From the NCBI GenBank assembly GCA_018238155.1, contig JABCTZ010000006.1, forward strand, positions 72,837 through 136,836: a stretch of DNA of 64,000 nucleotides, written 5' to 3'. Made by a program: the position numbers and the translations under genes. The DNA is from Candidatus Heimdallarchaeota archaeon (GTDB lineage Archaea > Asgardarchaeota > Heimdallarchaeia > JABLTI01). Positions 1 to 64,000 of this stretch are shown one piece after another. The notes under the pieces are model-generated. The model was not told where the DNA came from, made no database searches, and saw only the letters and a list, made by a program, of their open reading frames with translations. Numbering within the stretch: position 1 is the stretch's first letter; each line of letters opens with the position of its first letter.

Positions 1-982
1 CAATACCAAGAGATTCATCCCAATAACTCCCACCAAAGAAGGTACTCCAGAGTAAAGAACCATTGGAAGAGAATTTGGTTATAAAAGCATCCCAATCACC
101 AGCATAAGTGTCGTTAATTGCATTTTGTGTGGGAAAATCAATAGAAGAAGTAAATCCTGTGATATAACAGCTGTCATCACTTGCTACTGCAACACCATAC
201 CCCCATTCTCCACCATACTCCCCGCCCAAATAAGTACTCCAGAGGAGAGCGCCATCAGGGTCGAATTTGGATACAAAGACATCATAACCGCCATTAAAAG
301 TGCTATCGAATGCCTTTTCAGTGGGAAAGTTCGTGGAGGACGTCAATCCAGTAACGTAGCAACTACCATCACTTGTTGTTGCAACACTACACCCCATATC
401 CCAGTTATTTCCTCCTAGGTAGGTACTCCATAACAGCGTACCATTCGTAGCAAATTTACTAAGAAAGGCATCGGTAGCAACATCAATCCCACTTCCATAG
501 GTAGCATTGTAAGCATTCTTTGTAGGAAAGTTTGAAGACCAGGTTGTCCCCGTGACGTAGCAGCTGCCATCACTCGCCACAGCTATATCATAACCATAAT
601 CTAAATCACTCCCACCAAGATAGGTACTCCAGCATAGAGTGCCATTTGCAACAAATTTGGACACAAAAGCATCTCTACCACTATATGTATAATTGAATGC
701 ATGAAGCGTTGGGAAATCTCCTGAGGAGGTTCTTCCTGTGAGATAATAGCTGCCATCCCCTGCCACAGCAATGCCTAAGCCAATTTCTGTTCCACCCATG
801 CCACCAAAAAAAGTACAATACTCAAGAGTAGGCATAGCAGTCTTCTGGACTCCAAATTGAGTCTGAGGAAGTATTTGTCCACTGCCAAAATTCAGAGGAA
901 AGGGGGAACAAAGTATTAGAATTACAAAAAGAACGCCACAAGTCCCTCTCTTGCTTCGATTGGAAAATATCGTTTGACCCAT
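1..982 (-). CDS. Secreted SBBP (beta-propeller) repeat protein, 3' end beyond window start
   Basis: Not in ORF track. Manual translation from ATG at 982 (MGQTIFSNRSKRG...) is open to position 1, with a signal-like N-terminus and repeats of WSTYLGG..D.G..IAV..DGS.YVTG.T.S.NFPT..A...DAF.SKF. Confidence 0.85.
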   Translation of the reverse strand, partial: MGQTIFSNRSKRGTCGVLFVILILCSPFPLNFGSGQILPQTQFGVQKTAMPTLEYCTFFGGMGGTEIGLGIAVAGDGSYYLTGRTSSGDFPTLHAFNYTYSGRDAFVSKFVANGTLCWSTYLGGSDLDYGYDIAVASDGSCYVTGTTWSSNFPTKNAYNATYGSGIDVATDAFLSKFATNGTLLWSTYLGGNNWDMGCSVATTSDGSCYVTGLTSSTNFPTEKAFDSTFNGGYDVFVSKFDPDGALLWSTYLGGEYGGEWGYGVAVASDDSCYITGFTSSIDFPTQNAINDTYAGDWDAFITKFSSNGSLLWSTFFGGSYWDESLGI

Positions 983-1145
983 GATAATAACCTATTGCCT
1001 TTCTTTTAAGTATTTTATTCTTATAAGATTTATCTTGATTGAGGTTTCCTTAAATCTTTTAGTTTTGCACTTTCTTTACAATATAACCTCAAATAAAAGA
1101 AGAAACAATGAAATAAATAATGCTGTTATTTTTAAAAAAAAGATA

Positions 1146-1180: not shown

Positions 1181-2179
1181 CTAGGAACCAAACCATACAT
1201 AACTTGAACAGTCACTTATTTGAGCATATTGAGCATCACCAACTGGGGATTGACAGCAACTGTAAGCAATAGAGAAACCTTCGGTACCTGTAGCATCCAA
1301 ATTTAATTGTGCAAAGAAGTAATGTGAAAACCTTCCTTCATAAGGTAATGGTTGGAAAAGATAAGAAAAAGCAGGTTTGTCTTCACGACTGCAGGATATA
1401 GCAAGATAAGGTGAAGCTGCAAAATCGTCCACCCAGTAACCTGAATAACATGATTCCACAACAATACATTTACGGGGAGCCTCTAATGCATCCATATAGT
1501 CTCGAAAATCATCTGAAGAGATTGTGGTTCCATCTTCTTTAAATTTTGTATGGGAGTGTTCATTATATGTACTTCCATGACCAAAGATATAAACAAATAC
1601 GGTGTCTTGATCATGTTCGTATGCATCTATAGTATTCATTGCACTTTGAACAGCTGCAACATTTGCGCAGTCTTCGTATTTATAGAATTTCGTATATCCA
1701 TGTTCTTCTTCTAGAATATCAATATAATCGTCAATATCTTGTTCCCGTCCTGCATCACTTGCCCAGAAGAAGACACCTATCTTTTCTGTTATTCCGACAA
1801 GTTCAAAATCATTTGTTCCTCCACCATAGACCGTTTCCATACCAGAATTGAAACGAGTTTTGGTTGCAGTCAAATAATAAGGTGCATTACCATTCAATGT
1901 GACACTAAATCCATAATCACCTGAACTGTCTGTTGTATCTATTCCTAGTATATTGAAATAGCAGTCAGCGAGCATTATTGTAGCACTACTTAATGGATTA
2001 TCAGAACAATCTTCTACTGTTCCCTCAAAGGTTGATACACCTTGTACACTCATTATTCTCATTGTTGAAAAAAGGAGAATGATGATAGCTAAGAAACTTA
2101 TTTTTTTTTCAAATATTTCATTATTAAATCTCCAATTCAAAAGTGTTGAAAGAAAATTCTTTAACAGAGCTATTACCAA
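1181..2179 (-). CDS. Secreted clan CD (caspase/legumain-like) cysteine peptidase with N-terminal carboxypeptidase-regulatory-like beta-sandwich
   Basis: Hydrophobic N-terminus; G.V.D...PL..A.I...TD.SG.Y domain; catalytic motifs VFVYIFGHGS and IVVESCYSG. Confidence 0.7.
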   Translation of the reverse strand: MVIALLKNFLSTLLNWRFNNEIFEKKISFLAIIILLFSTMRIMSVQGVSTFEGTVEDCSDNPLSSATIMLADCYFNILGIDTTDSSGDYGFSVTLNGNAPYYLTATKTRFNSGMETVYGGGTNDFELVGITEKIGVFFWASDAGREQDIDDYIDILEEEHGYTKFYKYEDCANVAAVQSAMNTIDAYEHDQDTVFVYIFGHGSTYNEHSHTKFKEDGTTISSDDFRDYMDALEAPRKCIVVESCYSGYWVDDFAASPYLAISCSREDKPAFSYLFQPLPYEGRFSHYFFAQLNLDATGTEGFSIAYSCCQSPVGDAQYAQISDCSSYVWFGS

Positions 2180-2312: not shown

Positions 2313-2335
2313 AACCTGCGGCTGGATCACCTCCT
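2313..2335 (+). other. Orphan 3'-terminal fragment of archaeal 16S rRNA (h45 loop to anti-SD), possible att-site remnant
   Basis: aacctgcggctggatcacctcct matches the conserved archaeal 16S 3' end; no upstream 16S sequence; followed by hairpins (gattggcc...ggctaatc). Confidence 0.85.
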
Positions 2336-2413
2336 CTGAAATCGATTGGCCCTCAAGGCTAATCTCTGGTCCATGGAGGGAAATTTAACCCCTTTACATG
2401 TTTGACCTTAATT

Positions 2414-2480
2414 GTAGGGTTTGTTCAACCTCATGAAATCTTTTGTCATGCAAGAAAAAATATTTTTGTGCGAATCTTTA
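2414..2480 (+). repeat. attC-like repeat copy 1 (R' degenerate)
   Basis: GTTCAAC-ctcat-GAAATCTT...gtgcga-ATC. Confidence 0.55.
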
Positions 2481-2516
2481 TAGTTTATATCTAGCTCTTA
2501 TATAATAGGTGAATAT

Positions 2517-2711
2517 ATGAATTCAATTAACTTGAAAGTAGATGAACCAATAGTTATCCTTTCTTTGGCTGATTATGAAGCTTTAATAGAATCACTTGAA
2601 ATTTTAACTGAAGATTCCAAGATATTAGAAGAGATTACAAAAGCAAGAAAGGAGATTGTTACTGGTCAAGGCGTGCCTCTCAAGGAATTTCTCAAGGAAT
2701 TGAAGTCATGA
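2517..2711 (+). CDS. Phd/YefM-like antitoxin
   Basis: VILSLADYEALIESLEIL motif; stop overlaps start of the relE-like gene (ATGA). Confidence 0.75.
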   Translation: MNSINLKVDEPIVILSLADYEALIESLEILTEDSKILEEITKARKEIVTGQGVPLKEFLKELKS

Positions 2712-2965
2712 TCTATGATATAATATTGGCACCTCAACCACAAAAATTTCTTAAAAACATGAAAAATAAATGAATATTTCTTCAAATTGAAGTTGCTTTC
2801 ACAAGTATATCTTTAGATCCTAAAAAAGGCAAACAATTAGTAGGTGCTCTAAAGGGATTGTGGAGTTGGCGTGTAAGTTCTTATCGAATTTTATATGAAA
2901 TTCAAGAGCAGAAAGTAATTGTATATGTACTTCGTATTTCACATCGGAAAAAAGTCTATGAGTAA
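2708..2965 (+). pseudogene. RelE/ParE family toxin with in-frame TGA at 2771-2773
   Basis: MIYDIILAPQPQKFLKNMKNK*IFLQ...GKQLVGALKGLWSWRVSSYRILYEI...VYVLRISHRKKVYE. Confidence 0.8.
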
Positions 2966-2993
2966 TTTTTAGTCTGAATTTTCATATCTTTGT

Positions 2994-3061
2994 GTAGGTT
3001 ATTGTACTCTTTGATTATCTTTTACCATTCAAGGAGCGAAATTTTATTGTGCGAGTTAGGT
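2994..3061 (+). repeat. attC-like repeat copy 2
   Basis: gtac-tcttt-gattatcttttacc...aaggagcgaa...attgtgcga-GTTAGGT. Confidence 0.55.
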
Positions 3062-3190
3062 TCGTTGTTTTTAGATAAAGTTTTAACCTTTTTTTAAGAA
3101 GTTTTTACTTTGCACGTGAGTTGATTTCTTATAAGTTGAAAGGTATTATTTAATAGTTTAACTTCTATATAGTATAAAAGAGGAATTCGT

Positions 3191-3442
3191 ATGAGTAAAT
3201 TTGAACGAATTGTCCGTGATCCTGAGATTTGTGGAGGACAACCAACCATAAAAGGCACTCGAGTTCTAGTTCTCGATATTCTTGATTGGGTTAAAGAAGG
3301 ACTATCTTTCGATGAAATTTTGGAGAGCTTCCCCAGTATTACTCGAGAGGATATCCAAGAAATAATTGCATATGCAAAGGATATGATTGCAGGTGAGGTT
3401 GTCATTTATGGTTCTAAGAAAAGCGAAGTTTCTATTGGATGA
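3191..3442 (+). CDS. DUF433 antitoxin
   Basis: RIVRDPEICGGQPTIKGTRV...EILESFPSITREDI. Confidence 0.9.
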   Translation: MSKFERIVRDPEICGGQPTIKGTRVLVLDILDWVKEGLSFDEILESFPSITREDIQEIIAYAKDMIAGEVVIYGSKKSEVSIG

Positions 3443-3767
3443 GAACATTCCTATAAAGCTTGAACAATTATTCACTTCTCTTGAGTTATCTTGTGTTTCA
3501 ATTCGGGATGTGAAGTGGTTTGGCATTAAAAATAGAAAATTATCTGAAAGAGTCAAAAAGAGCTCCTATATTCTAATTACTCGTGATAAAGATTTCACGT
3601 TTCTCTGGAACAAATATGAAGTCCAAGTTATTTATTTAGCTATTGACCCTCCACTTCTATCTTCTTTTCTTCAACCTCTTCAGAATTTACTTCTAAATTG
3701 GCACTATAACCTAGACAAACCTTTTCTTATAATTTTGACTAAGGATACAATTCGTTTAAGACAATGA
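3408..3767 (+). CDS. DUF5615/Mut7-C PIN-like toxin
   Basis: FLLDENIP...ILITRDKDF; ATG at 3408 follows aggtga RBS. Confidence 0.8.
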   Translation: MVLRKAKFLLDENIPIKLEQLFTSLELSCVSIRDVKWFGIKNRKLSERVKKSSYILITRDKDFTFLWNKYEVQVIYLAIDPPLLSSFLQPLQNLLLNWHYNLDKPFLIILTKDTIRLRQ

Positions 3768-3840
3768 TTTGTATTAACACTCTGAAATCTTTTACCAAGT
3801 AAGGAGCAAAAAAAGTATTATTGTGCGAGTTCGGTTAGAT
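3768..3840 (+). repeat. attC-like repeat copy 3
   Basis: attAAC-actct-GAAATCTTttaccaag...attattgtgcga-GTTCGGT. Confidence 0.6.
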
Positions 3841-3846
3841 AATCAT

Positions 3847-4212
3847 TTAATCTTTAGGTCTTATTCGAATTGCTTTGGTTGTAATAATAACTAATTTGCC
3901 TTGATATCTAGGTTCTTTTAAGTCTCTAAGCATAAGGCTTCTATGCAATAGTTGATTTGTTGCTTCAGGATGTGGTGATAGCACTTGCAGAATAATTGTT
4001 AATGGAGGTTTTTCTTTCGTGTTATGATATATTTCTCCGAATCTTCTATCATGTGTAATCAACGGAGTAGAATTTTCTGTTGCATAATCATATATTTCCT
4101 CATCAGTTATACTTGATTTCAAAATCTCATCAATTTCTAATACTATGAATTTATTTTTTCTCAAAATTTTCTTCGTTGATTCTGATAAGCATTCATCAAC
4201 AATTACTCTCAT
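3847..4212 (-). CDS. DUF5615 PIN-like toxin
   Basis: VIVDECLS...DEEIY..A......LITHDRRFG. Confidence 0.85.
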   Translation of the reverse strand: MRVIVDECLSESTKKILRKNKFIVLEIDEILKSSITDEEIYDYATENSTPLITHDRRFGEIYHNTKEKPPLTIILQVLSPHPEATNQLLHRSLMLRDLKEPRYQGKLVIITTKAIRIRPKD

Positions 4213-4227
4213 TGCCCCTCTCCTCTC

Positions 4228-4467
4228 TTACTCTACTATTGGGATAATTTCATCTTCTGGGTGATTAATGAGGTGAATTGAATATTCAAGTGTTGCTCGT
4301 ATATCCTCTTCTGTTAATTTTGGATATTCTTTGATTATCTGCTCAAAAGACGCTCCGTCTTTTAGCATCTGTAAGATAATGTAAATTGGTATTCTAGTAT
4401 TTCTAATGACAGGTTTGCCACCTAGAATCTTGGGGTTTACTTCTATACGATTTATTATTGGATTCAT
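4228..4467 (-). CDS. DUF433 antitoxin
   Basis: RIEVNPKILGGKPVIRNTRI...EYPKLTEEDI. Confidence 0.9.
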   Translation of the reverse strand: MNPIINRIEVNPKILGGKPVIRNTRIPIYIILQMLKDGASFEQIIKEYPKLTEEDIRATLEYSIHLINHPEDEIIPIVE

Positions 4468-4538
4468 TTCTTCTCACAATTATATTTATCTGGCTGACTA
4501 ATAAAGTTTTTTTGGATTTCTAACAAATTTTTCCATAA

Positions 4539-4615
4539 TAGGAATTTGTTTACACAAAACATCTTGAAATCTTTTACCAAGCAAGAAGTGAAAAATAGTT
4601 TTGTACGAGTTAGGT
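4539..4615 (+). repeat. attC-like repeat copy 4
   Basis: aaAAC-atctt-GAAATCTTttaccaagcaag...gtacga-GTTAGGT. Confidence 0.6.
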
Positions 4616-4756
4616 TGTTCTACTTTTATTTGACTCTAATTTTTTTGATTTAGATTTTAAAAAGAATGAAACAAGAAATAAGAATTTCAAAATATCTTAA
4701 GATAGTGGATTTTACATTAAAAAAACCGTTTTGGTAACTAATTTTCTGTATTGTTT

Positions 4757-5014
4757 TTACTGAAGCATTTCGATGAGTTTATCTTTCGAGATATTGTTCC
4801 AAATTGCTACCTTCGTTAAAATATCGTTTAGAGTTCCTTTTGCAATCTCTTTATGTGTAACAATAGTAATATGATGTTCTCCTGCTTCCCCTTTCTTTGT
4901 TAGTCTTATATGACTTCCTTTTTGTCTTACTACCCGATAATCTAGTTTATTCAGTAGCTTTAGTAGTTTCTTTCCACTAACTACTGGAAGCTTTGGCAAT
5001 TGCTTGCACCTCAA
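4757..5014 (-). CDS. hicA: HicA family mRNA interferase toxin
   Basis: LPVVSGKKL...VVRQKGSHIRL...H.EIAKGTL. Confidence 0.9.
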   Translation of the reverse strand: MRCKQLPKLPVVSGKKLLKLLNKLDYRVVRQKGSHIRLTKKGEAGEHHITIVTHKEIAKGTLNDILTKVAIWNNISKDKLIEMLQ

Positions 5015-5213
5015 ATTCAGACAAAGTTAAAATTCTTATCGTTTCTGTTTGCAATTCTTCCTCAAAGTGCACCTCAACGGCTTCTTCAATATTCTTTCGT
5101 AATTCATCTAAGGTTTTCCCTTGAGTAAAAATATCTGCATCCATTCCTCTTGCACACCAATTTCCCTCTTCATCTTGATATATTTCTAATTTTATTAGAC
5201 GCATTAATTTCAC
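4977..5213 (-). CDS. hicB: HicB-like antitoxin
   Basis: QDEEG.WCA......FTQGKTLDELRKNIEEAV; overlaps hicA. Confidence 0.8.
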   Translation of the reverse strand: MKLMRLIKLEIYQDEEGNWCARGMDADIFTQGKTLDELRKNIEEAVEVHFEEELQTETIRILTLSEFEVQAIAKASSS

Positions 5214-5301
5214 CTAATTATATCTTCTTTTTCTTTAATTATAAACTCATTTATTATTGATTATATTTAAAACTCATTCTCTTTTCATGTTCGATCTAAA
5301 A

Positions 5302-5371
5302 GTAGGATTTGTTTAACCTCATGAAATCTTTTACCAAGCAAGGAGCGAATAAATTATTGTGCTAGTTAGGT
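5302..5371 (+). repeat. attC-like repeat copy 5 (best conserved)
   Basis: GTTTAAC(5311)-ctcat-GAAATCTT...aattatt-gtgcta-GTTAGGT(5371): RYYYAAC and GTTRRRY cores, 61 bp. Confidence 0.65.
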
Positions 5372-5419
5372 CAGTTGTTATTATTTTTACTATTTTTCGT
5401 TTATCTTAATTGTAAATGG

Positions 5420-6700
5420 TCACTCAGATTTTTTCAGTTGTTTTTTTGTTCTTATCCTAATAGCAGCAATTACTTTTAGGACAATAACAATTAGAATGAT
5501 AGAAATAACCGCTATTACTGATACAATTGTAATTATCATTTTAGTTTCAAAGGTTAGAGGAATTACCATTGGAAATAATCTTTTAATTCTCTCAGGATTT
5601 GTAACATCATAGATAAAAAGGAACCAAGAATAATAAAAAGTCGTAGCAATCCAATCTTCCGTAATTATTATACAAATGTTGTTTATCATGACTATTTTTT
5701 TATACTCTAACTTCAAACGGTCTTCCATTGAATGTTTATCGAGTTCAATAATATGTTCAAGATTTGTTTTATCTAATGTTAGTATTTCCCTTTCAGTTAC
5801 TAGATAAACAATATTTTCAGATACATGAGCTGATTTTGCATTTTCTAATGTATAATTAGCTATACAATTCAATCTATTATCATTTAGTATTTCATAAATC
5901 TTCAATCCCATATTATCGCAAGCATTTAGCTGATCATCCGACAATGAAATGCTGTTTAGATTGTCGAATTCATATTCAACTACAAAATCTAATTGAAGAG
6001 CACTATTTACTTCATAGATAGCTAAATTTTGCTCTCCGGTTATTACGAAAACTCTTTCCTCATCCATTATTACATCATTAAAGGAAAAGTTTCTCGTTGT
6101 ATTACCAATTAAGTTCCAGTTGTTAAAATCTGTTAAATCATATGTGAGCATTAATTTACTTCCATAATCGTTAGAACCAAAAATGAATAATTCATCATTG
6201 ATTATAATCAATTTTAGTATTTCCAAATCTATTGTTGTAAGTATATTCACCAATGTAGCGTTTATTTCACAATTAACTATCCCAATGAAATTATCATAGT
6301 GTCTTGCACTGAATAATATCTTATCATTGTATCTTGTTATATACCGTGCTAAACTGAGATTTGCATTTTTTTCTTGATAGATTACTTGCGCTTTCGCTGG
6401 TCTACTTATATCGATTATCTGAAAACCTGCTGAGCTTGTTGAATAGATTAAATCTTCATATACTACAAAATCAAAACTACAATGCATCACTGTATTGATC
6501 GTATAAAATTTGTCGATACAGACTTTCTTATTGATTGATGTATTTCCACTAATATATTGTGGATTTTTGATGTTATTATAGTCTATGGACGTTCCAATGA
6601 TAACTGTAATGATCATTGAAATTCGTACTAATTTAAAAAAATCGTTTCCTCTCATAATGCATCCCGCTTTTCCATTCTCTTGTATTTCTTTCCTTTTCAA
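5420..6700 (-). CDS. LVIVD-repeat-like beta-propeller surface protein with C-terminal TM and basic tail
   Basis: FQIIDISRP, LTYDLTD, FIYDVTNP repeats; N- and C-terminal hydrophobic segments; true start probably a later Met. Confidence 0.65.
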   Translation of the reverse strand: MKRKEIQENGKAGCIMRGNDFFKLVRISMIITVIIGTSIDYNNIKNPQYISGNTSINKKVCIDKFYTINTVMHCSFDFVVYEDLIYSTSSAGFQIIDISRPAKAQVIYQEKNANLSLARYITRYNDKILFSARHYDNFIGIVNCEINATLVNILTTIDLEILKLIIINDELFIFGSNDYGSKLMLTYDLTDFNNWNLIGNTTRNFSFNDVIMDEERVFVITGEQNLAIYEVNSALQLDFVVEYEFDNLNSISLSDDQLNACDNMGLKIYEILNDNRLNCIANYTLENAKSAHVSENIVYLVTEREILTLDKTNLEHIIELDKHSMEDRLKLEYKKIVMINNICIIITEDWIATTFYYSWFLFIYDVTNPERIKRLFPMVIPLTFETKMIITIVSVIAVISIILIVIVLKVIAAIRIRTKKQLKKSE

Positions 6701-6726
6701 ATTGATAAAATTTTTTGTAATGAGCG

Positions 6727-6740
6727 TGTGCGAGTTAGAT
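6727..6740 (+). repeat. Half copy of attC-like repeat (R' side only)
   Basis: tgtgcga-GTTAGAT. Confidence 0.45.
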
Positions 6741-6752
6741 TAGTTCATTTTT

Positions 6753-8068
6753 TTATTCTTCTTTATATTTCAATTCAGGTTTATTTTTCAGTTTTATTTT
6801 TTTAGATTTCTTCAACTTCCTCACAGAAAAGATAGACATAATTATAACAATAATCAAAATAAATGGACTTGCAATACCCATTATTGGAAGAATTAAATAG
6901 TGAAATATGAGTGGTAATTTTATTATTGGAAATTGTAGTTTAATTCTATTCTTATTTTCTATATCAAAGATAAAAAGATCGGTTTGTGTGTCAGGGGCAC
7001 CTGTCATGTAATCCTCTGTCATAACTAAAACATAGTTTTTGTACAAGAAAATTTTCTTAAAATCTAGTTCTACTATATCCTTTAGCCTATATTTACTTCT
7101 GCATTTAATTTCATCATTTTCTACTTCTAAAAGTACTAAATTCTTTGAGTTTATGATGCAAATAATATCATCCTTAACAGCAATTGACTTTGGTTGAGCT
7201 ATATCATAACTTGCAATTTTTTCCGGATTATAAGGATCGTCATTATTGAACACTTGAATTTGGTTACTTTTTAATGCATACAGAAAGTTATCCTGAAAAC
7301 TTATTCTGGTATATTCTTCTTCAAATTCTTTTACTTTTACTGGTGCACTTACATTGCTGAAATCGTAGACCAACAATTTGTTGTCAATAGTACTATGATA
7401 TAGAAAATTATTATGGAATTTATAATCTAGGATATCATCATATTTATAATACGGTGGATATTGATTCCCAATCACAATTTCTGAAATATTGTGACAACCA
7501 ATTAAGATTGGATTATAGATATCACTAATATTGTATATTTCACATTGAGGGACTTCATATCTTGAACCAAACAAAAAGAGATTGTTCTTTTTTTGCTCTA
7601 AACGGTGAACAAAGCTTAAATTTGTACCAATTATTTTATTAAAGTATTGATCTTTTCATTTTCAATAAATCCAATTACACTTTGATTAACATTATAATTT
7701 CCATCCATTGCCATGAACGTAATACTGCCATTATTGTAAAATGAGAAAATATATTCATAATCAAAATATCTTACCCATTTTAATTCTTTCCATCTTTGTA
7801 ATTGGGAGATATTTCTTACAAATATTGAACTTGATGAGAAGCTAACGAGAACTAAATCATTTACGCATGTAATATCATTGCACATCTTTAACATATGATT
7901 AATACTCAGTGGATTATTATTGAAATAATTTAAACTTTCAGTTTTAGCATTGTTTTTCTCAGTATTCATATTTGAGTAATGATTCCGTAAATCATTCATT
8001 TGAACTAAAATTATGATTATAAAAAAAAAGGTATAAATAATCCTCTTCCTACAATTCTTTAATCCCAT
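6753..8068 (-). pseudogene. Frameshifted LVIVD-repeat-like surface protein (ORFs 7631-8068 and 6753-7574)
   Basis: The 6753 frame stays open upstream to about 7640 (KIIGTNLSFVHRLEQKKNNLFLFG); adding one base in the A-run near 7635 would join the halves; paralog of 5420-6700. Confidence 0.7.
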
Positions 8069-8128
8069 TTTTCCACTCTCTTGTATTTATTTACTCTTCA
8101 AATTAATAAAATTTCTTGTAATAAGAAT

Positions 8129-8142
8129 ATGCGAGTTAGGTT
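8129..8142 (+). repeat. Half copy of attC-like repeat (R' side only)
   Basis: tatgcga-GTTAGGT. Confidence 0.45.
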
Positions 8143-8370
8143 TGTTTTTTTCTTTTTTTGTTTTTCGTTCGAGTTTTCCTATTATTTTCAACCCAAGAAC
8201 TATACTTAATATTATTATGATAAAAATAATCCTCGATTTTTATTGTTTATTTCAATCAAAAAGAGCATGCCAAATTATTATTAAAGATAGAAAGATATTC
8301 TTCATTGGGATTTATACTAGGTTTATTATCTTAGATTTTGAATTCACAAGAAATTTCCAGGTGAAAAAGT

Positions 8371-9672
8371 ATGGAAGAAAACCAACTAACTGAACAAGAA
8401 ACAGATACTAGAATAGAAGAAGTATTGAACGATAATCGAGCAGATAAAAAGCAAATTAGTCCAGTATTAAAGGTGATTATTCTAGGCATATTGACCTTCT
8501 TTACTATTGTAGCTGTTTCAGTTTTACACGCAAATAAACCAGAATTCCTCGCTAAAGTCAGTACGTATGAGTTATCAGAGTTTCAGGAATCGTTATTTGA
8601 TTCTGTGCAATATGCTTCGTATCTTATTTTCGGTATTATTATAGGAATACTTGCTGATAGATTCGCAAAGCGGAGAATCTTTATTCTTATTGGAAGTGCT
8701 GTTTCAGCAGTTTTCTTCTTTCTAATGACGATTGTGGGTCAATATTGGCTTCTCTTGATTTTCAGGTTTATCCAAGGAGCCTTCACTGTTATGATTTGGC
8801 AGATGTTAATGACTATGATTCTTGATGTTTCTACAGAAAAGGATCGTGGAAGAAACATGGGTATTTATGGCTCTTTACTTGCATTAGGTTTTGGTTTAGG
8901 ACCAATGTTTGGAGGTTTCTTATCTAAGGCGGGAGTTAATGTACCCTACTACACTGCTACTGGTCTTGTCTCACTAGTTTTTATTCTCTCTTTAGTTATT
9001 TTACGAGAAGCAGAAACTACTGCTGATAGACCCACAATTATTGACTCACTTTCAATTGTTAAAAAATATCCCCGAATTATTATCCCCAGTATATTCAATT
9101 TTGTGGATAGATTTACTATTGGTTTTATAGTCTTTTTAATACCGTTCTTCCTTAATGATGAATTAGGGCTTCCAGCTGAAAAAAGAGGTCTCTCTCTTGC
9201 AATCTTTGCTTTACCATTTATTCTTCTTCAATTTCCGATGGGCAAACTAGCAGATAAAATTGGTCGGTATATTCCTTTATTGATTGGTAGTTTATGTTAT
9301 TGTATTGTTTTACCGATGGTAGGCTATTTTAGCGCCAATAATTTTACCGTGTTGTTAATACTGTTAGCTCTTTTAGGAGTCTTCTCAGGTATTTCTGCAC
9401 CTGCTAATATGACTTTAGTTGGAGACTTTGTTAAAAAAGAGGATAATGCTATGGGAATGGGTTTCTTTAATTTCGCCGGAAATTTAGGTGTTACTCTTGG
9501 TCCTTTAGTTGGTAGTTTATATGGCATTTATGGATACAACACAATTTTTCTATCAGCTGGCATTGGAAGAATGATCCTGTTAGTTATTAGTGTTCTCTTG
9601 ATCTTCTTAGTTTTCAAAGAAAAATTACAACCTTCTCCTAAAGGAGCTGTTGAATTAAATACTGAAAAATAA
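8371..9672 (+). CDS. MFS transporter
   Basis: About 12 TM segments; GILADRFAKRR and GKLADKIGR motifs. Confidence 0.9.
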   Translation: MEENQLTEQETDTRIEEVLNDNRADKKQISPVLKVIILGILTFFTIVAVSVLHANKPEFLAKVSTYELSEFQESLFDSVQYASYLIFGIIIGILADRFAKRRIFILIGSAVSAVFFFLMTIVGQYWLLLIFRFIQGAFTVMIWQMLMTMILDVSTEKDRGRNMGIYGSLLALGFGLGPMFGGFLSKAGVNVPYYTATGLVSLVFILSLVILREAETTADRPTIIDSLSIVKKYPRIIIPSIFNFVDRFTIGFIVFLIPFFLNDELGLPAEKRGLSLAIFALPFILLQFPMGKLADKIGRYIPLLIGSLCYCIVLPMVGYFSANNFTVLLILLALLGVFSGISAPANMTLVGDFVKKEDNAMGMGFFNFAGNLGVTLGPLVGSLYGIYGYNTIFLSAGIGRMILLVISVLLIFLVFKEKLQPSPKGAVELNTEK

Positions 9673-9777: not shown

Positions 9778-10803
9778 TTAAGGTGTAATCACCGTTCTGA
9801 ATTCTGCAGTAAACTTTCTAAGACGATGTTGTACTTCATTAATAGCACCTGCTTCTAGTGGAACTGTTTTTGTTACCACATTAGTTAAGTCAAGTTTTCC
9901 TTTTTCTGCTAATTCAAGTAAGAAAGGTATCTCAGATAATAGGTGATCAGAACATCCAATGATTTCTTTTTCTCTACATATTGCCTCATAAGAATCGATA
10001 TTGAATGGTTGTTTTGTAATTCCGACTAATCCCAATCTCCCAAATCGAGCCAATGATTTAATTCCTTGTTCCATTGTTAGTTGAAGTCCAATTAATTCTA
10101 ATGCGACATCCACACCATCTCCGAGAGTTAGCTCCATTATTTTCTCCACAGGATCATTTTCTTTGGCGTTGATAGGTATCGCTCCTAGTTTTTCTGCATA
10201 AAGCAATTTTTTCTTATCAATATCTACAGCGTAAATCTCTCGAGCACCAAAAACTTTTGCTAACTGCAATGCAGAAATCCCCAATCCTCCTAGACCAAAG
10301 ATTGCTATGTTTTCTCCCGGTTGAAATCTTGTTTTCCTTAGTGCATGAAGCGAAGTTGCTGAAGAACACATCATCACTGAAGCATGTTCAAATGAAACCC
10401 CATCTGGTAGCTTGTATATACCTCGAGTGGGTACAGCAATATATTCTGCGTATCCACCATCAACATCTTTCCCTATCATTTTACCCTTGACACAAAACTG
10501 TTCTGTACCTTGAATACAGTATTTACACTTACCACATGTAATCATATAATTAACACAAATACGGTCTCCAATTTGAAAATCAGTTACATTTTCGCCAATT
10601 TTTTCAATTTCCCCTGCAACTTCATGCCCTAAAGTTATTGGTAAATATCCCACAGGAGAAACCCCCGCTCTATAATGAACATCCGAATGGCAAATTCCTG
10701 CTGCTTTTATTCGAATTAGAACTTCATCTGTCTTTGGTTCCGGTTTTGGAATTTCTCTTTCCTCTAAATCTTTACCAATTTCAATTAATTGAATAGTTTT
10801 CAT
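9778..10803 (-). CDS. Zn-dependent alcohol dehydrogenase (MDR family)
   Basis: GICHSD, GHEVAG, CGKCKYC...C, G.GGLG. Confidence 0.92.
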   Translation of the reverse strand: MKTIQLIEIGKDLEEREIPKPEPKTDEVLIRIKAAGICHSDVHYRAGVSPVGYLPITLGHEVAGEIEKIGENVTDFQIGDRICVNYMITCGKCKYCIQGTEQFCVKGKMIGKDVDGGYAEYIAVPTRGIYKLPDGVSFEHASVMMCSSATSLHALRKTRFQPGENIAIFGLGGLGISALQLAKVFGAREIYAVDIDKKKLLYAEKLGAIPINAKENDPVEKIMELTLGDGVDVALELIGLQLTMEQGIKSLARFGRLGLVGITKQPFNIDSYEAICREKEIIGCSDHLLSEIPFLLELAEKGKLDLTNVVTKTVPLEAGAINEVQHRLRKFTAEFRTVITP

Positions 10804-10965: not shown

Positions 10966-13900
10966 GTGTTTCATATTTCCAACTATTACATCGGTACCAA
11001 TGTAGGTTCTGTTTCAGTGAACCTTGTCTATATTGATGATGACGATAATGTTGCTACATTCAAACGACCTCATCTTGGCAATCCAAAACAAGTTCTGAAC
11101 TATCTCTTAGAAGAAAAGATCGGTAAAAAAGATAACTATTATGGTGTTAGTGGTTCTTTTGGTGATATTTCTGAAATTGTTGCAGTAGAACGTGCTCTAA
11201 ATTCTTTCGATGAAAAATTCGATGTTGTTCTCTCTTTAGGAGGGGAAGCACTTATTCTTTATGTCTTAGGAGAAGACGGTCATATCGCCAACGTCATGTC
11301 TCACGATAAATGTGCAGCCGGAAGTGGAGAGTTTTTCATACAACAAATTGATAGATTAGGTCTAACTCTTCCTGAAGCCATTGCACTTGCATTGAAGGGT
11401 AAGAAAACTGAATTAGCTTCAAGATGTTCTGTTCATTGTAAATCTGATATTACACACAAATTGAATCGTGGAGAAGCACTAGTTGAAGATTTATTAACTT
11501 CCGTTCTTGCGAGTATAGTGAGCAAAGTACAAGCTTTGATCTTTCAATCTCGAGCCACTGTCAAACGTATGTTAGTCATTGGCGGTGTTTCATTAAATGA
11601 AGCCTTTATTAAAATATTGCGCGAAGAGATTTCTGGTGTTAATGTAGTAATAAAAGAAGTAAGTCCCGTTTTCGAAGCATATGGAACTGCACTCTTGGTA
11701 CGTGACAAACCTGTTTATCAACAAATCAAGTTAAAAATAACTAAAAGTTTCACATCTAACCCTTCCCTATCTGATTTCGAAAAACAAGTAACAATTATTG
11801 AAGCAACAGAAAATAAGACAAAATTCAAGAGGAACACTGTTTTTCATTTAGGTGTTGATGTGGGTTCTACAACAACAAAAGCTGTATTGGTTGACCCTTC
11901 TGATTCAAGCGTAGTTGCATCTTATTATGGAAGAACAAGTGGAAACCCAATTGAGGCAACAAAGAACTGTCTTGTAGAGCTTATTTCTCAAGTCGGTAAT
12001 CAGAAAGTTTCTTTGGTCGGAGTAACTGGATCTGGAAGATCACTTGTCGGTGCTTTTCTGGGAACACCGGCAATTTATAACGAGATTTCAGCTCATTCCC
12101 AAGGAGCTGTTTTTTATGATCCCGAAGTTGATACCATCTTTGAAATTGGTGGTCAAGACTCCAAATATATGCTCTTGCAGAATGGTGTTCCAGTTGACTA
12201 TGCTATGAATGCTACCTGTTCCGCAGGCACAGGCTCATTTCTGGAAGAAAGTGCAAAAGGTGATTTGGGTATATCTGTTTTTGATATCTCTAAAATAGCA
12301 ATTGATGCAAAGCAACCTATTAGATTCAAAGCTGATTGTGCAGCATTCATAAATACGGATATTCGCACTGCACTACAAGAAGACTATGGCAGAGAAAATA
12401 TCGTTGCAGGATTAGTCTACTCAATTGTTGATAATTATCTAAACAAAGTAAAAGGAGCAAGACAAGTAGGCAAAAAAATCTTCTTTCAAGGTGGCGTTGC
12501 AAAAAATCATTCAGTTGGATATGCATTCGCACAAACAACTGGGAAACAAATTATTATTCCTCCAAACCCCGAACTTGTTGGAGCGTTTGGCATTGCTTTA
12601 ATTGCGAAAATTAAATTCGAACAACATGAAATAACAGAAATGCCAAAATCAACTTCTCTCGAGACTTTGATCAAAGCAGAACTTAAACATCTTGGAAGTG
12701 TTACTTGCAAATCTTGCAAGAATTTTTGCAAAATTGAGCGATATGAAGTTAGTGGTCGACGTTTCTTATTTGGTGGAAGTTGTTCAAAATACGAGCACCA
12801 GTGGAAAGGGTCCGAAAAAACAGCTGAAGTGGAAGACCTTGTTCAAAAAAGAAATGAAATAATGTTTGACGATTCAAATAATAACAAGACGAAAATTTCT
12901 AGAAGTAAAAAATCAATTGGAATTCCTCGAGCTTTGTTAACTCACAGCTTATATCCACTGTACTCCACTTTCTTAAGAGAATTAGGTTATCAAGTCATTC
13001 TCTCTGGAATTGATGATGATAAAGAATTAATGACAAATGCTCCATTTTGCTATCCAATTCAAATTTTGCATGGTGCAGTCTTAGATCTTGTAAAGAGAAA
13101 AATTAAAACGATATTTATACCACATATTGTTAAATTGACAAAAATATATACTTGGAGGGATTCAACATTCTGCCCAATAACTCAAGCAAGTCCTTACATT
13201 ATCTCACAAGCATTTGAAGATACTACTATTTTAAAACCAACTCTTGATTTCTCACGAGGGTATACCAAAGAAAATGCCTTAATCAAAATGGCCGTAGACG
13301 AATTACATCACACTAAAAAATTAGCTAAGAAAGCCTTTCAAAAAGCTGTTGAAGCTCAATTAGATATTGAGAAACAATTCTTGCTTTTAGGACAAGACGC
13401 AATTAACAAATTGAAAGGGACTGATGAAATCGGTATCTTATTGGTCGGAAGAAGCTACAATGCTTTTCCATCTGAAACCTCTCTGAAAATACCAAAGAAA
13501 CTCTCGAGCATGGGTATTACAGTAATACCTTTTGATTTTCTGGAAAAAACTGATACAGACGATATTCCCTGGTATTTTGCAAACTATGTCAAAGTAGCAA
13601 TTGATCTTGCGTTAAAACACGAAAATCTCTACGTACTCTATATTAATAGTTTCAGTTGTACAATAGATGCTTTTATTCAAAATTATGTTAGTACCGAGAT
13701 GACTTCAAAACCTTATCTCTTTTTAGAATTGGATGCACATACTGCAGATGCGGGGATCCAAACACGATTAGAAGCCTTTCTTGAAATTGTTAAAAACTAC
13801 AAAATAAGTGAGAAAATAGACAAAGAAGATTCATTTCAAGTAGCACAAGTAAAACGTAGAAATGGAAAAACAGTAGTAATAACTTCCCAAGGGAAAACTC

Positions 13901-15351
13901 TCGATATAAAAGACTCTCGAGTCAAACTCTATTCACCAAGCTTTTCAAAAAATCATACCGATATCGGTGAAAAATTCATGTCTATGTTTGGCTTTAACAT
14001 GGGTGTTGCCAATGACATTAAACTAGACTACGCCGTGAAAGGATTAAGATGTAGTTCAGGAAAAGAATGTATTCCTCTTCCAATCGTTTTAGGTCAAATA
14101 ATGACTCTTGTTGAAAATAAAAAACCTGAGGAACTTATAGGTATGTTCATGATTCGTGGAGGTTCACCCTGTGCCGTTTATAGCTATTATCATTACATTG
14201 AACAATTTTTAGAAAGTAATAAAATAGAAAATGTTTTCATTTATAGATTGGATTATCTTACAAAGTTCTTAGGTATGAAATTAATTGATGTTTTGCGCTT
14301 TTTCCCAAAAGCAATGGTAATTGCTGATATTATTGATGAAATTGAAAGCTCTCTCCGAGTTGTAGGTGATCAAGATAGTTTAGATTCACTTCAGAGAGTT
14401 TGGGGAGAATTTTTGAACAACATTACCAACAAAAGAAATTTTACCAAAGGATTACCGAGGCTCATTAGAAATATTAGAAAAATACCTCGAAAAGACTCAC
14501 CAATAGACTATCCAAAAGTACTGATCAGTGGTGATTTCTTTGTGCGATTTAGCCCCTTCTTTTTGAAGGAATTACGTGATATTTACAGTGAAAATGGCAT
14601 CATCGTTAAATCCTCAGATTTACTTGAATTAAATTTGTATGGTACAAGTTTTAATGGTGGTTATGAGGTTTTGAAGAAATGGAATAAAGACCCCACGAAA
14701 TTCTTAACTCAATTGAGAGCTTTTCTCACACCTTGGGATCTAGCTTCTAGAAACCTAATTATTTCAAAGATTGTTTTAAAATTTCTACATTCACTTGAAA
14801 GAAGAATTAGAAATCGATTCAAGAAAACAAGATTATTATATGCTGAACCAAATGATATTGGAAAGCTGATAAATCACTCTAGCCCTTATATCTCTCGTTT
14901 AATTTTTGGCGAAGCAATTCCAACAATTGGTAAAGGATTAGAAACTTTGGAAGAGTCTGCATATGATTCTCTGATATTAACTGGTCCCTTTAATTGTCTG
15001 CCATACAAAATATCTCAGGCAATTTTGAAACCTATTTACTTTGAACATAACACTCCTTTCCTAGTATTTGATGTAGATATTACCGCAATTACACCCAACA
15101 CGAAACGATTAATTCATGCCAACATTGAACAAATAAAAAGAAAAAGAACGCAAAATCTTCGTGAAGTAAAATGGTCTCATAGAGTAGAGAGTAGATTGAA
15201 ATCACAAGAAAGAAAGCAAGAACGCAAAAAAGAACGTTTATACAGAATGGTTCAACGGAAAGAAAAAATTTGGTCTCAACAATTAGAGCGAACTGAAAGG
15301 CGACTTAAGAATCGAACGATTATTAATCTGATTAGATGGAGGAGAAAATAG
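10966..15351 (+). CDS. Fused PlsA/Ger-type protein: two BcrAD/BadFG activase domains, DUF2229 and a 2-hydroxyacyl-CoA dehydratase-like domain
   Basis: DKCAAGSG, LGVDVGSTTTK, NEISAH, EIGGQDSK, MNATCSAGTGSF, FQGGVA, CKSCKNFC, IGIPRALL, LDAHTADAGIQTRLEAF, ECIP, PFNCLP. Confidence 0.85.
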   Translation: MFHISNYYIGTNVGSVSVNLVYIDDDDNVATFKRPHLGNPKQVLNYLLEEKIGKKDNYYGVSGSFGDISEIVAVERALNSFDEKFDVVLSLGGEALILYVLGEDGHIANVMSHDKCAAGSGEFFIQQIDRLGLTLPEAIALALKGKKTELASRCSVHCKSDITHKLNRGEALVEDLLTSVLASIVSKVQALIFQSRATVKRMLVIGGVSLNEAFIKILREEISGVNVVIKEVSPVFEAYGTALLVRDKPVYQQIKLKITKSFTSNPSLSDFEKQVTIIEATENKTKFKRNTVFHLGVDVGSTTTKAVLVDPSDSSVVASYYGRTSGNPIEATKNCLVELISQVGNQKVSLVGVTGSGRSLVGAFLGTPAIYNEISAHSQGAVFYDPEVDTIFEIGGQDSKYMLLQNGVPVDYAMNATCSAGTGSFLEESAKGDLGISVFDISKIAIDAKQPIRFKADCAAFINTDIRTALQEDYGRENIVAGLVYSIVDNYLNKVKGARQVGKKIFFQGGVAKNHSVGYAFAQTTGKQIIIPPNPELVGAFGIALIAKIKFEQHEITEMPKSTSLETLIKAELKHLGSVTCKSCKNFCKIERYEVSGRRFLFGGSCSKYEHQWKGSEKTAEVEDLVQKRNEIMFDDSNNNKTKISRSKKSIGIPRALLTHSLYPLYSTFLRELGYQVILSGIDDDKELMTNAPFCYPIQILHGAVLDLVKRKIKTIFIPHIVKLTKIYTWRDSTFCPITQASPYIISQAFEDTTILKPTLDFSRGYTKENALIKMAVDELHHTKKLAKKAFQKAVEAQLDIEKQFLLLGQDAINKLKGTDEIGILLVGRSYNAFPSETSLKIPKKLSSMGITVIPFDFLEKTDTDDIPWYFANYVKVAIDLALKHENLYVLYINSFSCTIDAFIQNYVSTEMTSKPYLFLELDAHTADAGIQTRLEAFLEIVKNYKISEKIDKEDSFQVAQVKRRNGKTVVITSQGKTLDIKDSRVKLYSPSFSKNHTDIGEKFMSMFGFNMGVANDIKLDYAVKGLRCSSGKECIPLPIVLGQIMTLVENKKPEELIGMFMIRGGSPCAVYSYYHYIEQFLESNKIENVFIYRLDYLTKFLGMKLIDVLRFFPKAMVIADIIDEIESSLRVVGDQDSLDSLQRVWGEFLNNITNKRNFTKGLPRLIRNIRKIPRKDSPIDYPKVLISGDFFVRFSPFFLKELRDIYSENGIIVKSSDLLELNLYGTSFNGGYEVLKKWNKDPTKFLTQLRAFLTPWDLASRNLIISKIVLKFLHSLERRIRNRFKKTRLLYAEPNDIGKLINHSSPYISRLIFGEAIPTIGKGLETLEESAYDSLILTGPFNCLPYKISQAILKPIYFEHNTPFLVFDVDITAITPNTKRLIHANIEQIKRKRTQNLREVKWSHRVESRLKSQERKQERKKERLYRMVQRKEKIWSQQLERTERRLKNRTIINLIRWRRK

Positions 15352-60929: not shown

Positions 60930-61204
60930 TGAATAATTCAGTAAACGAATCCGCGAGAAATGCGCAACAACAGCAATTGTTGAGCGGATCAACGCGCATA
61001 TTTACGATAATTGATTAAATTATTGATGCGCTTGGCGAGACAGTGAAGCTCGCTGAGTAAGAGGTAAAAAATGTGACCACCGGCGCATCGGTATGGGAAT
61101 AATGAAGAATCATTGCTCTCAAATCGAACGCTAAATAAGACGTCCTTTTTTACCGTAGATGGTCTCACTTCTTCAAGTGAAATCTAGATCTCCATAGTAG
61201 GTTC

Positions 61205-64000
<2,796 letters not shown>

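Follow-up and report, generated by a model that had tools for sequence, protein, structure and literature searches.

Introduction

What occupies the boundaries between the genes of a compact array lying behind the 16S rRNA gene of an Asgard archaeon, and how could such an array have come about? This question is raised by a 64,000-nt stretch from Candidatus Heimdallarchaeota archaeon (assembly GCA_018238155.1, contig JABCTZ010000006.1; C1:72837-136836, hereafter the window), near the start of which four toxin–antitoxin (TA) modules and two surface genes are separated by copies of a short direct repeat. A sequence-only reading had taken these repeats for attC-like sites and the whole for a decaying, integron-type cassette array. 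Analysis of the window together with an upstream stretch (L001 = C1:56000-75500) of the host assembly (4.08 Mb, 32% G+C, 90.7% complete) gave a different answer: at the module boundaries stands the 3′ arm of the processing stem of the 16S pre-rRNA, made up of a bulge-helix-bulge (BHB) half-site, a distal helix and an oligo-T run, displaced and partly decayed.

Architecture of the repeat array

A sequence-only covariance model (R1), which was made from the array copies themselves and whose E-values are therefore circular, placed seven repeat copies in the window, all seven on the forward strand. Independently of R1, the 15-nt right box (at most 2 mismatches) was matched six times in the window, where shuffles led to an expectation of 0.07, and ten times in the entire 4.08 Mb genome, seven of these ten inside one 9-kb stretch that corresponds to this array. 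The R1 placements agree with the repeat positions first read from the letters (about 2414, 2994, 3768, 4539, 5302, 6727 and 8129), and the rule that one copy stands at every module boundary, whatever the orientation of the genes, was confirmed. The unit consists of a conserved left box, a middle of 0–35 nt and a conserved right box. The last two copies, h6 and h7, had been regarded as half copies; two alignments revealed them to be full copies with a short middle. The reported loss of the GTT side in copy 1 and of the AAC side in copy 2 was borne out, as the right box of the former and the left box of the latter are decayed. Overall, the copies are 75–90% alike and not near-identical, and a run of at least five T follows 5 of 8. 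Mean copy identity within the genome (0.82) and between genomes (0.81) does not separate the two cases, short global alignments being too coarse for this comparison. The array extends upstream past the window start, up to the 16S rRNA gene, and its copies are as follows.

L001:15976-16064, forward strand: copy 0, found by R1 in the 3′ flank of the 16S gene, about 0.8–0.9 kb before the window
2414-2489, forward strand: copy 1 (R1 54.3 bits), with an exact 18-nt BHB half-site and a decayed right box
3000-3072 by R1 (unit from 2994), forward strand: copy 2 (55.3 bits), with decayed left box and BHB half and an exact right box
3763-3843, forward strand: copy 3 (R1 61.3 bits), beginning at the stop codon of the preceding gene, with a degenerate BHB half
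4539-4625, forward strand: copy 4 (R1 58.5 bits)
5302-5381, forward strand: copy 5 (R1 74.1 bits), with an intact BHB half-site
6689-6751, forward strand: short copy h6 (R1 36.4 bits), right box with 1 mismatch
8088-8151, forward strand: short copy h7 (R1 36.9 bits), the last of the array

The right box of copy 0 is seemingly duplicated, with two overlapping 9-nt versions in tandem (L001:16035-16058), while copies 2–5 have one. The spacer between an SBBP gene and a peptidase-like gene (window 1040-1100) has two short left-box-like stretches, possibly the remains of another, decayed copy; in a metagenome contig of 99% identity a repeat occupies this place (joint at 1005). A solitary short copy with an intact BHB half-site was observed in this genome, far from the 16S gene, at G000:C4:44657-44716 (L033:1499-1558), and a solitary copy occupies a similar locus in a sister species (G009:C119:21997-22055, L005), both standing about 60 nt upstream of a HicB-like gene.

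Identity of the repeat with the 16S rRNA trailer

A complete 16S rRNA gene (L001:14405-15895) ends about 0.94 kb before the window, with copy 0 directly behind it, and the pattern of the 16S tail has a single match in the whole genome. In an RNA duplex calculation, the entire trailer, about 215 nt, was paired with the 5′ leader of the 16S (−99.5 kcal/mol), including G:U pairs, a kind that works in RNA only. The part of this duplex inside the repeat is a canonical BHB site, composed of a 13-bp helix, a 3-nt leader bulge (L001:14255-14257), a 4-bp CATG:CATG helix, a 3-nt trailer bulge (L001:15998-16000) and a 10-bp helix. The left box is thus the trailer half of a BHB cleavage site, and the right box pairs with the leader as an 8-bp helix farther out. 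The register AAC-N5-GAAATCTT, previously assigned to attC, coincides exactly with the trailer half of the rRNA BHB site and not with an R″/L″ box. Likewise, the extra conserved sequence that had been noted outside the left core is explained by the whole unit being a copy of the 16S 3′ trailer.

Comparison with a genome of the same genus (G010) revealed a central helix altered on both strands and a distal helix of other sequence that is still complementary; these compensatory changes, seen in one species pair, indicate that the stem is under selection at the RNA level. Repetition is confined to the trailer arm: there is one leader, and no copies of the leader arm were found elsewhere in the genome. 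The exact 18-nt BHB half-site is retained in copies 0, 1 and 5, whose duplexes with the leader reach −61, −44 and −50 kcal/mol (z −7.2, −5.7 and −5.7), and is lost in copies 2–4, h6 and h7. Outside the half-site, copies 1 and 5 differ from copy 0 by about 16–18%. Their exact half-sites may stem from recent conversion, or these copies may still be able to pair with the leader in read-through RNA.

The origin of the repeat can also be read from an orphan piece of the 16S gene that precedes copy 1.

2314-2336, forward strand: orphan piece of the 16S gene, repeating its final 23 nt, read directly from the sequence
2337-2413, forward strand: copy of the proximal 16S trailer leading into copy 1, 83% identical to the true trailer over 112 nt

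Orphan and true tail are identical over 37 nt (the end of the 16S gene and the adjoining 14 nt of trailer) and about 83% identical over the next 112 nt, and the two resemble an attL/attR pair around a 3.2-kb insert. A gradient of decay leads away from the 16S gene, from the intact copy 0 over the long copy 1 and the short copies 2–5 to the even shorter h6 and h7.

The 16S stem is unusually long, with a trailer of about 215 nt against a leader of about 310 nt (L001:14100-14412 with L001:15881-16094); beyond the right box it holds a perfect 15-bp A/T helix, and about 100 nt separate its BHB from the mature 3′ end. The 23S gene (window 61201-64000), which runs off the contig end and is the only Rfam match in the window, is on the same strand as the 16S gene and unlinked from it, about 62 kb apart, with the array and many ordinary genes between.

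Tests for attC sites

Folding of the eight copies as single-stranded DNA, on both strands, gave −0.9 to −5.5 kcal/mol (z −0.39 to +1.71 versus shuffles) and not one hairpin, and RNAalifold found 0 consensus pairs in the repeat alignment. RYYYAAC and GTTRRRY boxes do occur, both in copy 5 only and one of the two in several copies, but neither fits in copies 3, 4 or most of the relatives' copies, and the AAC and GTT ends do not covary. A search of the genome with the integron-integrase model TIGR02249 gave no match, so the IntI-type recombinase that an integron would call for was not found; the best tyrosine recombinase, a XerA-like protein, reached 38 bits against the 265-bit cut-off of the model. 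From the earlier description as a cassette-like array, the prominence of TA modules as cargo and the differences in content and order between relatives stand; the attC and integron identity does not.

Cargo genes

The content of four TA modules, assigned by Pfam, and two LVIVD-like surface genes was confirmed, with the qualification that ParE is broken and the second surface gene is split. Starting behind copy 0, the cargo and the distal flank comprise the following.

1-982 (whole gene L001:16233-17819), reverse strand: SBBP beta-propeller gene, 528 aa (Pfam SBBP 3.7e-22), first cargo after copy 0, running off the window start
1181-2179, reverse strand: 332-aa gene, second cargo between copies 0 and 1, with a weak Peptidase_C13/CarboxypepD_reg Pfam match
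2517-2711, forward strand: TA module 1, open reading frame (ORF) of a presumed 64-aa antitoxin with no assigned family
2708-2965, forward strand: TA module 1, ParE toxin (Pfam ParE_toxin 4.4e-10 on 2777-2965), with one in-frame TGA
3191-3442 and 3387-3767, forward strand: TA module 2, DUF433 antitoxin-like and DUF5615/PIN-like genes (Pfam)
3847-4212 and 4228-4467, reverse strand: TA module 3, DUF5615/PIN-like and DUF433 genes (Pfam)
4757-5014 and 4977-5213, reverse strand: TA module 4, HicA and HicB-like genes (Pfam)
5420-6700, reverse strand: LVIVD-like beta-propeller of 426 aa, a surface protein with a membrane anchor at the C-terminus and a colinear 22% match to an LVIVD protein of G008
6753-8068, reverse strand: broken paralogue of the surface gene, with ORFs 6753-7574 and 7631-8068 in different frames, a weak Beta_propel match and direct repeats
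8371-9672, forward strand: MFS transporter (Pfam), conserved distal flank
9778-10803, reverse strand: Zn-alcohol dehydrogenase (ADH; Pfam), conserved distal flank

The blades of the SBBP protein are encoded by four diverged 83-nt direct repeats spaced by about 190 nt (window 17-681), which do not belong to the array repeat. Just past the ADH gene, a 1461-aa ORF (10966-15351) holds two BcrAD/BadFG-type ATPase regions, DUF2229 and a weak HGD-D match, i.e. the CoA-enzyme activase type. The HicA gene of a HicAB cassette shared with genome G005 (L034:6534-6790) is without an open frame of at least 50 aa there, with HicB intact; the broken TA partner is hence the toxin in both cases, ParE here and HicA in G005.

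Arrangements in relatives and metagenomes

Comparison with related genomes, which had been suggested together with the integron reading, revealed that content and order of the cassettes vary among relatives. Four genomes of the same genus (G005, G006, G008 and G010) have different genes between the 16S tail and the conserved Zn-ADH, separated by copies of each genome's own trailer type; the ADH adjoins the arrays of G005, G006 and G008, and a 94% identical ADH occurs in G009 and G001. G005 carries a PPDK-like gene, zinc-ribbon and methyltransferase genes and, between G005-type repeats, the HicAB cassette it has in common with the window (83–91% amino-acid identity); its own 16S gene lies on another contig, and it too carries an orphan 16S tail. 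G006 has three trailer-type copies 2–3 kb apart, while G008 shows a row of small cassettes, the first two being single genes, each closed by a copy. The order in G010 is a repeat copy, a DUF433/DUF5615 cassette as in TA module 2, and an orphan 15-nt 16S tail with trailer, which places this cassette upstream of the orphan tail and thus in a position other than here. For the closest relative, G009, homology to the window resumes only at 8236, just right of the last copy, with a flavodoxin gene to the left of that point. Alignments of the shared cassettes (HicAB, DUF433/DUF5615) showed homology over promoter and genes only.

Orphan 16S tails of 15–21 nt followed by trailer were found downstream of the 16S gene in G010 and, outside the genus, in G041 and G016 of another family, where they lie 5–7 kb downstream (G016 being a closed genome). 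G020, a member of the latter family, has trailer copies 2 and 4 kb downstream of its 16S gene, without an orphan 16S tail. None of the trailers of G041, G016 and G020 is related in sequence to that of the window. Recurrence of the trailer-copy layout is thereby confirmed in two Heimdall families, within Heimdallarchaeia. Cargo of these arrays includes LRR, HEPN/AbiV, histone-fold and peptidase genes. A 206-aa ORF with a LAGLIDADG domain (L095:7498-8118) stands directly behind the orphan tail and trailer copy of G016. Within the DNA stretch examined, no trailer copies were detected downstream of the 16S gene in G007, G026, G030, G042, G015 and G078. In other families of the class, R1 gave weak matches that resemble chance or partial ones; viral contigs were rejected as carriers of the repeat, since the 17-nt left-box pattern occurred at 28 loci, about the number expected by chance, and none of these fits the whole repeat with R1.

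Further arrangements were obtained from Logan contigs of a marine-sediment run, mapped to the window at 85% likeness. One contig joins the SBBP gene via a repeat to TA module 2 (joint 1005/3048, side 161), with a left side 99% identical to the window and with the peptidase gene, the orphan tail and TA module 1 missing. Others join TA module 2 to the orphan tail (side 47), copy 5 to TA module 2 (side 72) and two repeat copies on opposite strands (side 55). All four joints fall in repeat copies. Joints with sides below 30 letters (2402/3783, 3066/7324 and 3814/8238) and window parts uncovered in runs X1–X4 were not used. Metagenome loci anchored on the ADH gene (L077–L089) showed neither trailer arrays beside it nor 16S ends, and a single diverged repeat-like stretch in L077 was the sole such case among them.

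Proposed mechanism and alternative explanations

We consider it probable, with moderate confidence, that the array was built by repeated insertion at the 16S tail combined with recombination between trailer copies; the insertion mechanism, its direction and the enzyme are what we infer, while what the repeat is, how it relates to the 16S gene and that relatives vary are shown by the data. DNA would insert repeatedly at the 3′ end of the 16S gene, which is single and unlinked, or immediately behind it, and each insertion would leave the 16S gene with a working tail while pushing the older tail downstream, as at tRNA and tmRNA genes. Displaced tails would then lose the 16S piece and the proximal trailer, shrinking to a unit of 55–85 nt, and the resulting direct repeats could act as recombination sites, via homology or some recombinase. 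Compact, self-promoted modules such as TA pairs and surface genes could in this manner be deleted, reordered and exchanged among related strains. The 37-nt core, the narrow range of the orphan edges (15–23 nt), the decay gradient and the variability among relatives fit this accretion, and as relatives carry the same modules in other orders, the rRNA tail appears to be a site of gene swapping.

Several observations weigh against this reading. The left edges of the orphan tails vary between 15 and 23 nt. Copy 1 and the G005 orphan share their left junction while the modules distal to it differ, so that a pure head-of-stack model does not fit; either internal copies were also used or modules were differentially lost. 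Repeats that flank shared cassettes match the type of the genome in which they reside and differ in extent, which is compatible with concerted evolution or re-insertion and does not show the repeat travelling with the cassette. The metagenome contigs stem from related organisms and hence display alternative arrangements, not movement in real time, and some of their joints have short sides. No integrase, transposase or other recombinase gene is present among the ORFs of the eight arrays examined; the only two tyrosine recombinases of the genome, the XerA-like protein and one of 524 aa, are on other contigs, and neither a serine recombinase nor a reverse transcriptase was found in the 90.7% complete assembly. 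In the absence of an integrase, host homologous recombination, a trans-acting recombinase or a nuclease-and-repair route must be assumed. Four ORFs upstream of the 16S leader (350, 103, 410 and 548 aa) were considered as recombinases and rejected, as they belong to no Pfam or NCBIfam family and have no 16S-adjacent counterparts in other genomes.

It is unlikely, in our estimate, that the copies are passive scars, i.e. trailer pieces left by old insertions or segmental duplications and acted on by ordinary homologous recombination only, with relatives differing by plain insertions and deletions. The lack of a recombinase in or near any array would be expected under such a scenario, as would the broken genes (ParE, the second surface gene and HicA in G005) and the imperfect likeness of the copies. 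However, the same compact cassettes occur in other order and on either side of the orphan tail in relatives, which deletions alone cannot explain; the exact half-site of copies 1 and 5 stands out from their diverged remainder, and the layout recurs in a second family with unrelated trailers.

A role at the RNA level appears improbable. According to this explanation, the copies are kept as partner arms of the leader, a BHB forming with copy 1 or 5 in read-through transcripts, whereupon splicing endonuclease and ligase would cut or circularise cassette-bearing RNA; as a variant, the copies would serve as terminators or insulators against rRNA read-through. The exact half-sites and leader pairing of copies 0, 1 and 5 and the T-runs behind most copies speak for such a function, and the same layout with unrelated trailers would suit a system that reads structure and not sequence. 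Leader pairing, however, follows from common descent and is therefore not independent evidence; copies 2–4, h6 and h7 are without BHB geometry, and there is no reverse transcriptase to convert RNA events into DNA.

Very improbable is nuclease-driven homing, whereby a homing endonuclease or an RNA-guided TnpB-type nuclease would cut the invariant 16S tail and donor repair would add a resistant tail with cargo, thereby orphaning the old tail. The confinement of orphan-tail starts to 15–23 nt from the 16S end in two families and the LAGLIDADG ORF behind the G016 orphan tail are in favour of homing, but all 8 TnpB-like and 7 LAGLIDADG matches of this genome are on other contigs, and the short internal copies have no 16S piece. 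No 13-mer of the 16S tail occurs in the genome outside the gene and the orphan, and the idea of a TnpB guide was rejected on this ground.

A true integron remnant, with attC sites recombined as folded single strands by IntI acting in trans, is extremely unlikely: although the array architecture, the TA cargo, repeats more alike within than between genomes and the box motifs of some copies resemble sedentary integrons, and integrase-less attC clusters (CALINs) with TA cargo have been reported in Asgard archaea (Ghaly et al. 2022, PMC9668308), there is no hairpin on either strand, no consensus pairing and no IntI in the genome, and the repeat is demonstrably an rRNA trailer complementary to the 16S leader.

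Implications

Beyond accretion at the 16S tail and recombination between the trailer copies, a tentative and rather doubtful extension would be an integrase-independent gene capture of Asgard archaea, which uses the 3′ stem arm as its site, stacks and shuffles cassettes behind the rRNA and may, through the BHB half-sites, couple cassette RNA to the rRNA splicing machinery by alternative leader pairing or circular RNAs. Full-text literature searches returned no published description of cassette arrays punctuated by copies of the 16S trailer. Among known organisms, Heimdall-group archaea are the nearest relatives of eukaryotes. Should the trailer copies be active sites, these archaea would collect and swap accessory genes in an integron-like manner, without an integron integrase or attC, and this gene swapping would have the cell's most conserved gene as its anchor. 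If true, this would bear on how Asgard genomes acquire genes, on why their rRNA genes are unlinked and located amid variable DNA, and on why contigs of metagenome-assembled genomes break at the 16S gene; some archaeal arrays described as CALIN-like may then be something else. It would also exemplify the reuse of an RNA-processing element in DNA; the retained BHB half-sites predict specific alternative ligation junctions in RNA.

Comparison with known systems

Like sedentary integrons and CALINs, the array consists of compact, mostly one-operon cassettes in either direction with one same-orientation repeat per boundary, TA cargo is prominent, the repeats are alike within the genome, and the content varies among relatives. 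Unlike these, its repeat is unfolded and without R″/L″/L′/R′ pairing, is a copy of the 16S trailer and differs between genomes around the same cassette; the array is anchored on an rRNA gene, and IntI, attI and Pc are lacking.

The second likeness is with islands at tRNA and tmRNA genes, where an essential structural RNA gene is targeted at its 3′ end and stays intact, orphan 3′ pieces mark older boundaries, an identical core (37 nt here) is followed by diverged arms, and islands differ between strains. Sublocation rules for integration at tRNA and tmRNA genes were reportedly set out by Williams in 2002. The tycheposons of Prochlorococcus are a described example of integrative elements that accumulate in tandem where these genes end on the 3′ side, with displaced partial gene copies (bioRxiv 10.1101/2020.12.28.424599). 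The present locus differs from such islands in that the 16S tail and processing-stem trailer are targeted, the duplicated segment reaches up to about 190 nt and includes the BHB half-site, no integrase was found in any array, and the smallest units measure 0.7 kb.

The dif modules of Acinetobacter plasmids, bounded by 28-bp XerC/XerD sites (pdif) in alternating orientation (PMC13141974, PMC6449649), are similarly small units, often TA pairs, that lie between short recombination sites and are shuffled among replicons, the recombinase being encoded outside the module. Here, in contrast, the repeats measure 55–190 nt, are all direct and chromosomal beside the 16S gene, and have no inverted arms; a dif-type core (two inverted 11-bp arms with a 6-bp spacer) is absent from the repeat alignment, and no inverted repeats were found within the array copies.

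Archaeal pre-rRNA processing stems with BHB sites are documented (PMC7038931, PMC10351888), as are unlinked rRNA genes in Heimdallarchaeota (PMC8997704). Copy 0 is an ordinary member of this class, with a 3-4-3 BHB that covaries between species and a 16S gene unlinked from 23S; unusual are the stem length of about 215 nt and the occurrence of the 3′ arm alone in seven to eight further copies between protein genes.

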